A DNA stretch of 64,000 nucleotides from an uncultured Verrucomicrobiae bacterium (GTDB taxonomy: Bacteria; Chlamydiota; Chlamydiia; Chlamydiales; Rhabdochlamydiaceae): contig OY970364.1 in NCBI GenBank assembly GCA_963718565.1, forward strand, positions 1,664,001 to 1,728,000, read 5' to 3'. A program made the position numbers and the translations under genes. How positions within the stretch are numbered: the first letter of the stretch is position 1; each line of letters begins with the position of its first letter. This document shows, one piece after another, positions 47,838 through 52,991 of the stretch. Below the pieces are notes generated by a model. The model was given only the letters and a program-made list of their open reading frames with translations, had not been told where the DNA came from and did not search any database.

Positions 47838-49868
47838 ATGGCTACAAATCTAAATCATGTTATTGAAAACAGTTTATTTGCTCAATCTGTTCTTTCTCCC
47901 GTATTAGGAGATGCTGGAGATAGTAAAAAGAATTTATTGAACAGAATTAAAAAATTAAATCAAGGTGAAAGATCAGAATTAGTGAAGGAATTAAATGAAA
48001 TCTGCTTACGTATTGACCTTCCCAAAGAGGGCTCGCTTCCCGATCACTTTTCTCGGGCTGCTATTCCTCTTCAAGAAAAAGGATTGAGCACTTTCCTTCT
48101 CTCTGATGATGGAAAGCAAGCAGAAGAGCATTGGTTCATTGTTTCCTTTTTTTTAGGATTGATGAATCGAATGGGTAAGAGAATCGGCAGTGATTTTATT
48201 ATGGAGCAGCTTTATGATACAAGAGCCTTATTACGCAGTCGCGGGTATGAGATTCGCGCTAACGAGGTTAATGCAGAACCAGGACTGAATGCATACATTT
48301 CCTTCCTTGAGGACAAATTAAAGGAAAAGAGCCCTGCTGAAAAAATCAACCCTTTGATCGATGAACTAGAAAAAATTAAACTAACATTCAACGATGCGTC
48401 ATCAAAAGATTGGGCCAGTCCGGGTGTCTTGCTGCAATTCCAATATCAACTTGCTTTTTTCAAAAAGCAACTTCAAACAGGTCCCCTCTCTGACTCCATC
48501 AGAACTACGGTTGAAGAAGCAATACAAAAAATCACGAACATTATTCAAGAGAGCAGAACACAAAGTCGCGACGTATTATCTGCAAACCTGCGTGACAATG
48601 CTCTTCCTGTTTTAAAGAACTTCGGATTTTCTGAAAATTTACTCGAATCTTTTGGGAGAAACTTAAGCGCACTTGCTCGCGGAGAACAGCTTCCTGAAAA
48701 GGTAGCTAATATTGGTTATTGGAGACGAAAGGTGATTATTCCTTATATAGGATGTCAACTAAGCACCATTAAAAAGGAGTTGCAAGGGATCATTTCCTCA
48801 TTTGAACTTGAGCAAAGAAAAACCCAAACTGAACTTGAAATCATCCATGGGCGTCTGGAAAAATATCAATACAACTCTCAAAATGCCATTAAGCGTGGAA
48901 GCCTTGCTACTGCAACTTTAAGCATTAAGGCCTTTGAGAAAGAATGGAAAGATTCTGCTTTAATTTGTGGTGTCATAAGTTCTGCGATAGTCGTGATATC
49001 TCAAGCAAAAGTTAAGAGTTTGGAATGGGTTAAAAATGCCGTCGAATTGATATACGCAGATGTGGCAGGTTCTCCAAATATTGATGAATCAAAAGCGAAG
49101 GGAGACTTTAAGCGCGATCTCCAACTCTTAAAAGATTTTTCTTATTCTGATTTTTCAATGAATAGGCAGCCCTTGGCTAATGCGCTTGACAAGCTTGAAT
49201 CATTACGTAGTAATCCACAAGGTTCTCTCGATGTCTACACAAGATTGAATCAGTTCAAGTCCAATCCGAGTGCCTATGATTTGACTTCTGATTTAAAGAA
49301 AATCAACTTCATCGACGATTATTTTGCTTATTGGAAATTCATTTTTGATCAGTCGAAACTTAGTAAAGCTGAAGAATTAAATAATGCCTTGGGAGCTAAA
49401 AAGAAAATTGAAGAGGAATTGACTCTTTCTTCATCTTCTGTGCCAAAACCTGTCGTGGGGGTACGTTCTCCTACAGTGACTCAGAATCCTATAGTGATTT
49501 CTGAAACTAAAGGGGATGCTAACCTCAGAGCCATAGCTAAAGGTCTACAAAATCATCGATCTAATTCTTCTATGGATTCAACTTGGTATGGACAAGTAGT
49601 GGCTGGCCCAAAATTGCATTCTGACCTAGTCAAGCAAGTGTACGGAAACTTTTATTGGATCATGAAGGATGCTGGAAAACTATGTGGAAAGTTACAAAGC
49701 GACGGACATGCAGAAGATAGTAATTGGGGGGGGGAAGTATTTACCTCAGGAAGCCTCGATGGAGTTCAACCTGCAGTTATTCGTCCTTTATTGAACCATT
49801 ATCGCGTGCAGGCAATGGCCGAAGTGTTGGAAGATAAAATTCGAACCCGAGCCAATCAAGCCTTCTAA
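47838..49868 (+). CDS. Hypothetical helical protein, possible secreted effector
   Basis: 676-aa ORF, AGAGGTG RBS, AT-rich upstream, no motif recognised. Confidence 0.65.
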   Translation: MATNLNHVIENSLFAQSVLSPVLGDAGDSKKNLLNRIKKLNQGERSELVKELNEICLRIDLPKEGSLPDHFSRAAIPLQEKGLSTFLLSDDGKQAEEHWFIVSFFLGLMNRMGKRIGSDFIMEQLYDTRALLRSRGYEIRANEVNAEPGLNAYISFLEDKLKEKSPAEKINPLIDELEKIKLTFNDASSKDWASPGVLLQFQYQLAFFKKQLQTGPLSDSIRTTVEEAIQKITNIIQESRTQSRDVLSANLRDNALPVLKNFGFSENLLESFGRNLSALARGEQLPEKVANIGYWRRKVIIPYIGCQLSTIKKELQGIISSFELEQRKTQTELEIIHGRLEKYQYNSQNAIKRGSLATATLSIKAFEKEWKDSALICGVISSAIVVISQAKVKSLEWVKNAVELIYADVAGSPNIDESKAKGDFKRDLQLLKDFSYSDFSMNRQPLANALDKLESLRSNPQGSLDVYTRLNQFKSNPSAYDLTSDLKKINFIDDYFAYWKFIFDQSKLSKAEELNNALGAKKKIEEELTLSSSSVPKPVVGVRSPTVTQNPIVISETKGDANLRAIAKGLQNHRSNSSMDSTWYGQVVAGPKLHSDLVKQVYGNFYWIMKDAGKLCGKLQSDGHAEDSNWGGEVFTSGSLDGVQPAVIRPLLNHYRVQAMAEVLEDKIRTRANQAF

Positions 49869-49972
49869 ATCACACTTCGAGCGAATTGCGAGATTGACAA
49901 AACGGGGTGATTTCCTGGGGGCTTGTAACAGAATCCATTGAACTTATTCAAACCTGATTATATATTATCAGA

Positions 49973-50395
49973 ATGAACAAGTTTTTAAGCATTCAGGAAG
50001 CAGCAAAATGTTTGGGAGTTTCTCCACAAACACTCCGCCGATGGGAAAGACAAAAGAAAATCGTTCCCTGTCATCGCATACAGGGCGGCCAACGCCGCTA
50101 TAGTCTCACTCAGTTACAGCCATTTAATTGCGGAGATAAAACCTCTGATCGTCTAACTGTTGCCTACGCAAGAGTTTCGAGTCATGATCAAAAAGAAGAT
50201 TTACAACGACAAGTCCATATGTTAGAAATTTACTGCTTTGCAAAAGGATGGGTGTTTTCGGTAACCAAAGACCTCGGTTCCGGGATGAACTATAATAAAC
50301 GTGGGCTAAAACAACTGCTTGAGCAAAATGGTTCAAGAAGCCATAAGAACAAACAGCTTTTGGCCAACCTTCAAAATGCGGTCGCCAATGTCTAA
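49973..50395 (+). pseudogene. tnpA: IS607 serine recombinase TnpA with in-frame internal deletion
   Basis: MerR-like HTH, YARVSS, DLGSG, then GLKQLLEQN joined directly to GSRSHKN; DRLxRFG segment missing. Confidence 0.85.
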
Positions 50396-51854
50396 AGAGA
50401 ATCTGGTTCTTAAGCTGAGAATTGAAGCAGACCCTCAAACAATTTCTGAGCTCGATGGGCAATCGCGGATCTGTAATTGGCTTTATAATCATCTGCTAGA
50501 AAAAAGCCTGGAACTCAAGCGGGAATTTATTCATTCCGGCAACCCGGAGGCATCAAAGACCCTCTATACAGAAAGAGGACTCAGAAATGAACTTCCAAAA
50601 CTCAAGGAAGAGCACCCCTTTCTAAAAGTCGTCCACTCTTCTCCATTAAAAAATACCGCTTTGAGACTTAGTGAAGCAATCCGGGTTCATCAAAAATCAA
50701 AAAAAGGAAAACGGAAAGGCAAACAGATGGGTTGGCCCAAATTTCGGGCCTGGAAACGGGACTGGTTTTCTCTTTTTTACGATGAACCAGAAAAAGGTTT
50801 CAAGATTCAAGGCAAAGCCTTGTTCCTCTCCCTTGGAATGGGCCAGGACCGCAAGCGCCGCTTCCTCACTCTCGAATTACCCGAAGCACATCTCCTCAAA
50901 GACAAAACCCCACGCAATTTGCGCATTATCTCCGAACTGGGAACCTACTATGCCATTTTTACCATTCAGAAAGAACTCCCCATCCGAAAACCCATTTCTA
51001 AAATCCTCGCACTCGATCCCAATCACAAAAATCTCGCCTATGGTGTTGACACAAGTGGAACAGCCATTGAGATTGCATCTCCTCACTGGCTCAAAACTTA
51101 CGATAAACGCCTGGACGAACTAAAAAGTAAAAGAGACCGCTGTGATAAAAAATCTAAAAAATTCCATGTTCTGGATGAAAAAGGCAATCCCACAGGAAAA
51201 GAATTCCATCTTCCTTCCAGGCAATGGAGAAAATACGATCATGCCCTAAAAAGCGCACTGCGTAAACGCCGAGAACAGACCAAGACGTTTATGTTTACAA
51301 GCGCTCATCGCCTTTTCCGAAATTACGACTGCATTGGAATCGGAGACTATACACCAAATGGCGAAGGCATTACTAAACCAATGCGGCGAGCGATGAATAA
51401 TCGATCCTTGATTGGACGTTGGAAAAACACCCTCTCCTGGGTAGCTCGAAAATCGGGAAAAACCTTTATTGAATTCGACGAGAAAGGGACAACCCGGACC
51501 TGTAGCCACTGCCTGCGGATTGAAGAGCGGGGAATCCCTGTCTCATTGAGACAATGGCAATGTCCACAGTGCAAGACCGTTCACATTCGCGACGAGAATG
51601 CCGCAATTAACGGCTTGAGAAAGATCTTGCGAGATCTTTCAGCAAAAAATGAAGGAGGATATCCTTCAATAGTGTCTGGCTCAGACCTCGCTTTTATCCA
51701 AAAGCGATGGGCCTGGTGTGTTTTGCCTAATGGTGTACATGTGACACCGTGGGGGCAAGACAGCAAAGCAATTTGCAGCACCAGGAAATTAAACCGAGGG
51801 CATGATAGCCCTCGATCAAAAGTTGATAATTTGGTTATATATGATCAGGTTTGA
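50388..51854 (+). CDS. tnpB: RNA-guided endonuclease TnpB
   Basis: CNWLYN, GWPKFR, RuvC-I LALDP, IGIGDY, FDEKGTT, CSHC/CPQC, RDENAAIN. Confidence 0.93.
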   Translation: MSKENLVLKLRIEADPQTISELDGQSRICNWLYNHLLEKSLELKREFIHSGNPEASKTLYTERGLRNELPKLKEEHPFLKVVHSSPLKNTALRLSEAIRVHQKSKKGKRKGKQMGWPKFRAWKRDWFSLFYDEPEKGFKIQGKALFLSLGMGQDRKRRFLTLELPEAHLLKDKTPRNLRIISELGTYYAIFTIQKELPIRKPISKILALDPNHKNLAYGVDTSGTAIEIASPHWLKTYDKRLDELKSKRDRCDKKSKKFHVLDEKGNPTGKEFHLPSRQWRKYDHALKSALRKRREQTKTFMFTSAHRLFRNYDCIGIGDYTPNGEGITKPMRRAMNNRSLIGRWKNTLSWVARKSGKTFIEFDEKGTTRTCSHCLRIEERGIPVSLRQWQCPQCKTVHIRDENAAINGLRKILRDLSAKNEGGYPSIVSGSDLAFIQKRWAWCVLPNGVHVTPWGQDSKAICSTRKLNRGHDSPRSKVDNLVIYDQV

Positions 51855-51892
51855 TCAAGTTTTGAAGAGCGGCTTTAAGCTGAATAATTTCC
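51700..51892 (+). ncRNA. Predicted TnpB omegaRNA scaffold plus guide
   Basis: Hairpins over the tnpB 3' end (GGTGT/ACACC, CGAGGG/CCCTCG); position typical for TnpB; boundaries inferred. Confidence 0.5.
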
Positions 51893-51914
51893 CTCAGAAA
51901 ATCACCCCGTTTTG

Positions 51915-52991
51915 TTAATTTTGCAATTCCCTCTCTGGATATTCATCATTCAAGACAGCATCGTAATGTGCAATCAGCTCTGTTGCTTTTGCATCGCTGC
52001 TTTTTTTGAGTTGTTCGTAAATCCGCAAGCCTTGCGCGCTTAAGCCATATTTAAAATAAAGGACGCCGAGGCGGAAAAGAACTTCGCGATCATTAGACGA
52101 TATTTTAAGGATTGTTTCGTATTCATGCATCTCTTCCTGAAATAGGTCAAGATTGTGGTAGATCTGTGCAAGTTGCGCATGGACCCAAGGGTCATTGGGG
52201 GCGTAAGAATCGAGGATTTTGTACTCTTCAATCGCTTTAAAAGAGGTTTGCTTAAATTTTTCCAACATCCTTGAGCCGGCGTAATCTGGAGAGATCCAGA
52301 AGTGCTCCTCATCAGGATAAAGTTTTCGCGGGTCCACATAGAGTTGAGAAAGTGTGAGATAGGAATTGGCAAGATGGGCGTGAGCTTCAAGATCGGTGGG
52401 CTTTAGCTTGATAAGTTCGATCTGCTGTTTGATCATTTTTAGGAGTAGCAGCTCCTTCATCTGATGGAGGTCTTTCCAGTGGGTCCAAGCACTGAATTTT
52501 TGCATCAACGGGGAAAGAGTTTTGAATGAAGCAGGCGCTGTATAATAGGAATATTCCAGGCGATGAAGGTTTGAAAGCAGGCGTCCTAAGGTTGTCGCAA
52601 GAGCAAGATGATGTTCGACACTATTTTTTTCAAAAGGAAGTATCGAGTGCGAGGCTTCAAGAAAATTAGCCCTGACCTCCAGAAGCTGGTTGGGTTTTTT
52701 GGCTTGAAAGTAAAACAAGAGGACAAAATAGGTAAAACCAGTAAAAAATAATCCTGCCAGCGAAAAGGCAAAGATTGTTGCCTTAGTGAAAAAGGAAAAG
52801 AAAAGGATAAAGGCGGCAAGTTCTAAGACTGCAATGGAGAAAAAAGTGATATGGAATAGAGCATATTGTCGCGTGACTTGTTTGAAATCTTCTAACGCTT
52901 CATTGCAAAATTGATCGATCCGTTCATCGAATGTGGAACGATGAAAATGAGCCTGTGGATTTATTCTTAAGGGCTCTTCAGTTGTTGTCAT
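51915..52991 (-). CDS. Two-TM protein with C-terminal TPR repeats
   Basis: Hydrophobic hairpin; HAHLANSY, HAQLAQIY, LFRLGVLY; last codons RELQN* lie in a family A end. Confidence 0.8.
   Translation of the reverse strand: MTTTEEPLRINPQAHFHRSTFDERIDQFCNEALEDFKQVTRQYALFHITFFSIAVLELAAFILFFSFFTKATIFAFSLAGLFFTGFTYFVLLFYFQAKKPNQLLEVRANFLEASHSILPFEKNSVEHHLALATTLGRLLSNLHRLEYSYYTAPASFKTLSPLMQKFSAWTHWKDLHQMKELLLLKMIKQQIELIKLKPTDLEAHAHLANSYLTLSQLYVDPRKLYPDEEHFWISPDYAGSRMLEKFKQTSFKAIEEYKILDSYAPNDPWVHAQLAQIYHNLDLFQEEMHEYETILKISSNDREVLFRLGVLYFKYGLSAQGLRIYEQLKKSSDAKATELIAHYDAVLNDEYPERELQN

Follow-up and report, generated by a model that had tools for sequence, protein, structure and literature searches.

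An insertion sequence (IS) of the IS607 family that keeps an intact tnpB gene and a deleted tnpA gene was found inside a palindromic repeat of an uncultured bacterial genome. The arrangement is very probably an ordinary nested insertion, in which the non-autonomous IS entered the central GGGG run of one miniature inverted-repeat transposable element (MITE) copy and carries a predicted guide that is private to that locus. The insertion locus lies between two convergent genes within the stretch analysed here (the window, 64,000 nucleotides), which corresponds to positions 1,664,001–1,728,000 of a single 2,284,058-bp contig (OY970364.1) with 43.6% G+C; the genome is designated G000 in the coordinates below. 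Two elements are nested: the outer is one copy of the palindromic repeat and the inner is the IS607-family element (Table 1). An earlier note made from the letters of this DNA (the original prediction) had described this nesting and had read it as a TnpB guide aimed at every empty copy of the repeat. The anatomy of that observation is real, while its functional reading fails. The anatomy, copy numbers, junction motif, guide uniqueness, state of tnpA and conserved RNA structure described below are direct observations.

The boundaries of the IS were determined by a genome-wide search with window positions 49879–51933 as the query. The block common to the other copies corresponded to 49918–51872 (query 40–1994), and the arms were matched by the window copy only. 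The shared block and the junctions together place the element at the coordinates in Table 1 and define its target motif as GGG(G). Seven uninterrupted copies are present; the six others differ from the window copy at 7–13 of 1,955 positions, and in all seven TnpA has 140 aa and TnpB 489 aa. An eighth tnpB-bearing copy (G000:C1:189202-192278) has an insert of ~1.1 kb located 31 nt before its right end, which replaces the final TnpB residues and leaves a TnpB of 485 aa. Several internally deleted or truncated copies of the IS are also found in the genome.

Among 14 left junctions, 13 read GGGG followed by CTTGTAAC and the fourteenth reads AGGG followed by CTTGTAAC, and the base preceding the G-run is variable. 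The right junctions all read ...GAAGAGCGG, ending in ...GAGCGG, followed by unrelated sequence without target duplication. Thus, all listed junctions exhibit the GG core at both ends and the lack of target duplication that are the hallmarks of IS607 elements. As is typical of TnpB systems, the motif at the left end, GGG(G) in 14/14 junctions, differs from the GCGG preceding the guide template; in the window copy, the left end is preceded by TGGGGG and the right end carries GCGG. The original prediction had pointed to TGGGG here beside the TGGG target-adjacent motif (TAM) reported for a Clostridium IS607 TnpB. A GGG-type motif before the left end fits the published IS607 TAMs, but the T is not conserved at the other junctions. 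In relatives of the same genus, the element occurs at 73–87% identity with the same ends, at unrelated sites, and with a TnpA of 206–207 aa. One copy in the genome G001 with seemingly similar flanks (query 32–2010) was rejected as a chance extension, and its flanks are unrelated to the MITE. The subterminal inverted repeat is probably a TnpA binding region. Promoter and terminator scans remained at the level of shuffled sequence, with one promoter-like site (49938–49966) ahead of tnpA.

Table 1 Features of the nested IS607-family element and the surrounding palindromic repeat, in window positions.
Feature	Positions	Strand	Remarks
MITE left arm	49879-49921		43/43 identity with the family consensus; runs into the G-run at its end
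Target motif GGGG, presumed TAM	49918-49921	+	Directly before the IS left end; TAM role assigned from published IS607 TAMs
IS607-family element	49922-51872	+	1,951 bp, CTTGTAAC...GAAGAGCGG; 7 near-identical copies without interruption, this one included
Subterminal inverted repeat, left copy	49941-49970		Pairs with 51832-51861; 30 nt, 83%
tnpA	49973-50395	+	140 aa; in-frame 66-codon deletion
tnpB	50385-51854	+	489 aa, intact open reading frame; the stop of tnpA overlaps its start
Predicted omegaRNA/reRNA scaffold	51679-51872	+	Ends ...GAGCGG; 8 conserved helices
Predicted guide template	51873-51892	+	Equals the target half of the donor joint; unique in the genome
Altered MITE centre	51873-51890		18 nt versus 27 nt in the consensus; 11 edits through ~2 events
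MITE right arm	51891-51933		2 substitutions relative to the consensus

As had been predicted, the tnpA gene of the window copy is broken, with a deletion that removes most of the catalytic domain. The 140-aa product retains the helix-turn-helix (HTH), the serine region, and the C-terminal tail, and is without the DRLLR stretch, which we take to be the conserved catalytic residues of serine recombinases. It contains a MerR-type HTH and matches only positions 2–58 of 145 in the Resolvase profile, and scores 112.6 bits against the NCBIfam IS607 transposase profile NF033518 over positions 2–114/187 (cut-off 110). The full-length copies score 217 bits over 2–187/187 of NF033518 and match Pfam MerR and positions 2–137/145 of Resolvase; the N-terminal MerR-like HTH and C-terminal serine-recombinase domain that define an IS607 TnpA are therefore both present in the 206-aa proteins. 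The 66-codon deletion is common to all eight tnpB-bearing copies, which occupy different GGG(G) sites, so the deleted-tnpA form has moved via the IS607 route. Full-length TnpA of 206 aa is encoded by two other copies in the genome, both without tnpB, and cognate mobilisation in trans therefore suffices. One of them (G000:C1:1529877-1530768, minus strand) is a mini-element with the gene for the 206-aa TnpA, the two IS ends, and precisely those 206 terminal bp that make up the predicted guide-RNA scaffold. The other (G000:C1:47848-49047, minus strand) keeps the 206-aa TnpA and has lost tnpB. The 140-aa frame is open in all eight tnpB-bearing copies, and, speculatively, the deleted TnpA might serve as a DNA-binding regulator or competitor instead of being debris.

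TnpB of the window copy contains Cas12f1-like_TNB and OrfB_IS605 domains and scores 138.6 bits against the NCBIfam family guided_TnpB (RNA-guided endonuclease TnpB family). Alignment to ISDra2 TnpB indicated that the RuvC-I aspartate (LDPN, residue 211) and the RuvC-III aspartate (RDENAAIN) are in place, and the zinc finger CxxC...CxxC is present. Glu366 is located six residues ahead of the first CxxC (E-x6-CxxC). It thereby matches the C-terminally shifted RuvC-II glutamate pattern, E-x6-[CH]xxC...RDxxxxxN, that is described for shifted-glutamate TnpBs (10.1101/2023.08.09.552727). Pro-Fanzors are described there as having a DPG motif (10.1101/2023.08.09.552727), whereas the window TnpB has DPN and thus falls into the larger group characterised by the shifted glutamate alone. 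Nuclease activity of this TnpB is plausible.

The tnpB gene is located on the same strand as tnpA and after it, and the structured 3′ end of the element is predicted to be the guide RNA scaffold (omegaRNA, also called right-end element RNA or reRNA), an arrangement expected of IS607. An alignment was made of the 3′-terminal 200 nt of the window element and of four copies from relatives; two of the five rows come from the same genome and are near-identical. In this alignment 97.1% of the cells were paired, and 12/70 pairs had compensatory changes, compared with 0–2 in slid controls. None of 500 shuffles (0/500) reached the observed values. The last ~195 nt of the element is therefore a conserved RNA structure with covariation. 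A search of 49500–52300 against Rfam returned no family at E values up to 1, group I introns included. A 16-nt segment of the left arm (49903–49918) and a segment of the predicted scaffold that is conserved and unpaired (51781–51796) show 81% complementarity. This complementarity is probably due to chance, and similar-sized pairs from the same repeat search were clearly chance matches.

Since the scaffold ends at 51872, the guide template begins at 51873, and the original prediction of a guide taken from just past the right end would thus hold by analogy with known systems. A guide length of about 16–20 nt would be expected from that of ISXfa1 (17 nt). The 20-mer at 51873–51892 has one occurrence in the genome at up to 3 mismatches, which is itself. 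The guides of the other uninterrupted copies are also unique. The guide of one copy, c2, gave 11 genomic matches at up to 3 mismatches, its own template included; the ten non-self matches were rejected as targets, for all have 3 mismatches and none follows GGG, and eight of them represent the terminus of a different IS, where the match is preceded by TTTAAA. Among the GGG-adjacent sites, the closest to the window guide is a 16-mer behind GGGGG in an 11-copy IS3-like element (e.g., G000:C1:156144, 321048, and 1737295). It is located at the run-of-A frameshift region of orfA/orfB with 2/12 and 4/16 mismatches, and is probably a coincidence, given that, by our arithmetic, ~1.8 such sites are expected by chance among the 48,711 GGG sites of the genome.

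The inverted 43-nt arms that the original prediction had placed around the IS were confirmed by a repeat search (49879–49921 and 51891–51933, 86% complementary, separated by 1969 nt) and by the whole-genome comparison. They belong to a 113-bp element with 13 other full copies and ~10 partial copies in the genome. It is short, non-coding, multicopy, and a near-perfect palindrome with terminal inverted repeats, as is characteristic of a MITE, and its 113-nt consensus folds into one long hairpin (−38.8 kcal/mol). All 13 empty copies (13/13) read ...CCTGGGGG, then AGATTAAGCTGATTAGCTAAATAATTT, then CCCCCAG.... After the G-run, the 13 full empty copies and two full copies in the genome G081 read AGATTAAGCTG(A/G)TTAGCTAAATAATTT, in contrast to CTTTAAGCTGAATAATTT in the window copy. 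The centre is unchanged in 11 of the 13 other copies, and the remaining two carry 1 and 4 edits. Excision of the IS in silico (49922–51872) leaves 104 nt that fold into one long DNA hairpin (−31.3 kcal/mol). The predicted hairpin of ~104 bp after removal of the IS was right in that the reconstructed form folds; however, the real empty repeat is 113 bp in length with another centre, and the 104-bp form is thus a reconstruction that is found nowhere else.

Many MITE copies share further sequence on the left side, and no consistent target duplication was observed in the flanks of the 14 copies. The MITE was searched for in 18 other genomes of the same genus, of which 17 had no match or marginal ones only and one (G008) had part of an arm at 83%. 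Of 60 further genomes sampled from the family, one (G081, of another genus, at the loci L045 and L048) holds the MITE with the consensus centre. Its presence as a whole in another genus and not in the 18 same-genus genomes suggests that the repeat or its partner has spread horizontally. A 20–22-nt terminus, GAGGGAATTGCAAAACTAAC, is found at 47 genomic sites (e.g., G000:C1:1566178-1566265 and 2150716-2150842), where it bounds modular small elements. The terminus spacings in that modular family are 66–541 bp, and several inner modules are shared. A second MITE copy (G000:C1:1624273-1625696, minus strand, L029) holds an unrelated IS of ~1.3 kb in its centre, within ten bases of the position equivalent to the IS607 insertion point. 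This IS has the inverted ends CAGGGCCATTTAACTAAAA, encodes a 424-aa DDE_Tnp_1/DDE_Tnp_1_assoc transposase, and is flanked by a 12-bp duplication, GGGAGATTAAGC. At the window locus, the right arm (51915–51933) supplies the last five codons and the stop of a tetratricopeptide repeat (TPR) gene (51915–52991, minus strand); the palindromic repeat has thus rebuilt the 3′ end of a host gene.

The original prediction held that the guide would cut any empty copy of the repeat and thereby allow homing through, or culling of, the MITE family. A TAM-like G-run is indeed located at the same position in every MITE copy, and the mechanism as published would permit homing if the targets matched (10.1101/2023.11.20.567912; 10.1101/2023.03.14.532601). 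The targets do not match. All 13 empty MITE copies have a centre different from that of the window copy, and every GGG-adjacent site of any MITE copy, among the 48,711 such sites genome-wide, has at least 6 mismatches in the first 12 nt of the guide. By manual comparison in register, the consensus centre differs at 9/12 of the first guide positions. With a shift of one base the mismatches fall to 3/12, but two of them are at positions 1–2 and the motif becomes GGGA (also compared manually). None of the 13 other MITE copies holds the IS (0/13) and no other IS copy has MITE flanks, and the suggested search for the empty ~104-bp element found no other copy of this combination of arms and centre in the genome, the 18 other genus genomes, or the 60 other family genomes. 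The 60-genome set gave two 2-mismatch matches of the 20-mer, which were not inspected, and the control pattern read backwards also gave one match. The guide fits its own donor site, as does every TnpB guide, and not the MITE copies; homing or culling in the family is therefore unsupported and we regard it as highly improbable. The original prediction had also suggested that the arms let a DDE transposase move tnpB as cargo, that is, that the transposase mobilising the MITE family moves the composite of arms and IS607. Because the same 20–22-nt termini bound elements with spacings of 66–541 bp, these termini tolerate varied content, which is the observation in favour of a composite. However, this composite is the only one in the genome, the search for other arm-flanked tnpB copies with duplications having found no second one, and the four bases on its two sides differ (CTTC versus TCTG), which confirms the missing target duplication that the original prediction itself had counted against the idea. 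A quick look 2 kb inward of 19 termini found no common transposase reading frame, although a partner may have been missed or be absent from the genome. In addition, arm-less copies of the deleted-tnpA element occupy many GGG(G) sites and the genome also encodes a full-length TnpA, so transport by the arms is unnecessary and we give it almost no credence.

An ordinary insertion accounts for the nesting without targeting of the repeat. The genome contains 10,605 GGGG sites on both strands, 6 per MITE, and the left junctions are all on GGG(G). By our arithmetic, the probability that at least one of 14 independent left junctions falls in one of the 13 full MITEs is ~10%; landing in a MITE G-run is thus an event of ~10% chance, and the nesting is real but not beyond chance. 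Several observations weigh against this reading. The unrelated IS at L029 occupies almost the equivalent position in a different MITE copy, and the MITE centre may be a preferred or easy landing site instead of a chance one. In the alignment to ISDra2 TnpB, the canonical position of the RuvC-II glutamate is occupied by glycine (GIGDY), so the activity of the window TnpB rests on the shifted glutamate. Assembled contigs of four metagenome runs, compared with 49300–52500, included no joint across the IS and no empty site. One metagenome contig begins exactly at 51872 with the right flank of the window, a loose end at 49921 that shows the consensus centre belongs to a different MITE copy, and two exact-pattern scans of the metagenome contigs for arm/flank junctions gave no match. 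Moreover, the flank beside the right end departs from the otherwise invariant MITE centre. Relative to the consensus, the left arm of the window MITE copy is free of edits, the centre (27 nt in the consensus) has 11, and the right arm has 2. The centre changes are AGA to CT right at the junction and one 8-nt deletion, and both fall in the guide, the 20 nt that follow the right end. Had the IS simply entered a consensus copy, the altered centre would be left unexplained; a diverged target copy or a later change is needed. The alteration could result from drift of a diverged copy, from change after insertion, or from selection against a guide with multiple sites. In the last case, an IS607/TnpB element in a consensus MITE would have a guide matching a dozen GGGG-flanked sites, the flank would have been altered before or after insertion, only the lineage with the changed guide-side flank would have persisted, and the altered centre would be the footprint of selection against autoimmunity. 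Consistent with such avoidance of self-targeting, 11 edits are concentrated in the centre of the window copy against none in the centres of 11/13 other copies, the consensus centre is retained in the two full copies of another genus (G081), both complex changes lie inside the guide stretch, and the other uninterrupted IS copies likewise have unique guides. On the other hand, the 11 edits represent ~2 events, and with 4 events over 104 nt the probability that at least 2 fall in a given 20-nt stretch is ~0.17 by our arithmetic, which is not significant. Other MITE copies are equally diverged overall, with up to 10–11 edits, and the pre-insertion state of the locus was not recovered from the metagenome contigs. 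We consider selection against self-targeting unlikely, and the ordinary nested insertion is retained as the best explanation.

In the ordinary nested insertion, a cognate serine-recombinase TnpA acting in trans would have integrated the deleted-tnpA element at the GGGG of the MITE centre. Excision of the window copy by TnpA would produce a rejoined donor site consisting of GGGG and the 20 nt at 51873–51892. The TnpB–omegaRNA complex would cut this rejoined site, and recombination with the sister chromosome would restore the element. Expression, the role of GGG(G) as the TAM, cleavage, and retention are expected here by analogy with published IS607 systems.

In the CboIStron of Clostridium botulinum, TnpA requires a GG core and prefers TGGG, and the TnpB TAM is TGGG (10.1101/2023.11.20.567912). 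Its scaffold ends in UCGG, and the base at −3 distinguishes the donor joint from the intact element (10.1101/2023.11.20.567912). The window element resembles CboIStron in having a cognate serine-recombinase TnpA with a GG core, a G-rich left motif (TGGG there and GGGG here), and a right end of the form xCGG. Likewise, the predicted guide immediately follows CGG with the −3 base separating self from joint, and cutting of the donor joint for retention would be expected here as well. Unlike in the described CboIStron, no group I intron was detected here (Rfam, 49500–52300), the −4 base is G and not T, and the preceding base is variable. The tnpA gene is internally deleted in the tnpB-bearing copies here. 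For ISXfa1, a TAM of GGG was described, CGG was reported not to be cut, the guide is flanked by CGG, and the guide RNA consists of a 144-nt scaffold and a 17-nt guide (10.1101/2023.08.09.552727). The window element shares with it the GGG-type motif as opposed to CGG at the guide side; the reRNA of ISXfa1 is ~150 nt and reaches ~17 nt past the boundary (10.1101/2023.08.09.552727). The described ISXfa1 TnpB has the typical active-site arrangement, unlike the window TnpB, which is also longer (489 aa).

For IS200/IS605, tnpB-only elements are known to be mobilised in trans (10.1101/2023.03.14.532601). As in the tnpB-only and palindrome-associated transposable element (PATE)-like elements described there, many transposase-defective copies share ends with a few transposase-bearing copies (10.1101/2023.03.14.532601), and the parts are modular: tnpA and tnpB reside in separate copies, each of which has the omegaRNA. 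The elements in that report differ in that they belong to IS200/IS605 with a Y1 transposase, while the present one belongs to IS607 and its tnpA is deleted in frame and not absent.

Insertions into palindromic repeats form another point of comparison. IS1397 and ISKpn1 are found in bacterial interspersed mosaic elements (BIMEs) and IS110-type elements in repetitive extragenic palindromic sequences (REPs), and these target the repeat specifically and repeatedly. The window element is likewise inside a small palindromic multicopy repeat. Unlike in those cases, 1/14 junctions lies in the repeat here, and a 4-nt G motif explains the choice of site. A literature search returned, among the matches listed (titles and abstract openings), nothing on a TnpB guide in combination with a MITE or on IS607 elements inside palindromes.

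In summary, the locus is a routine case and carries little weight by itself. A palindromic repeat in what looks like an uncultured soil or freshwater bacterium has, probably by chance, received a new IS607-family element whose TnpB is of the shifted-glutamate type. The locus nevertheless illustrates three known features cleanly: the GGG(G)/CGG arrangement for self and non-self in IS607 TnpB, the division of labour between tnpA-bearing and tnpB-bearing copies, and a guide that matches only its own donor site. Novelty would come solely from the speculative reading of the altered centre as self-targeting avoidance, according to which a transposon that carries a guide cannot remain in a multicopy repeat without change. 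If that were true, such transposons would be barred from landing in multicopy repeats or would be forced to mutate there.

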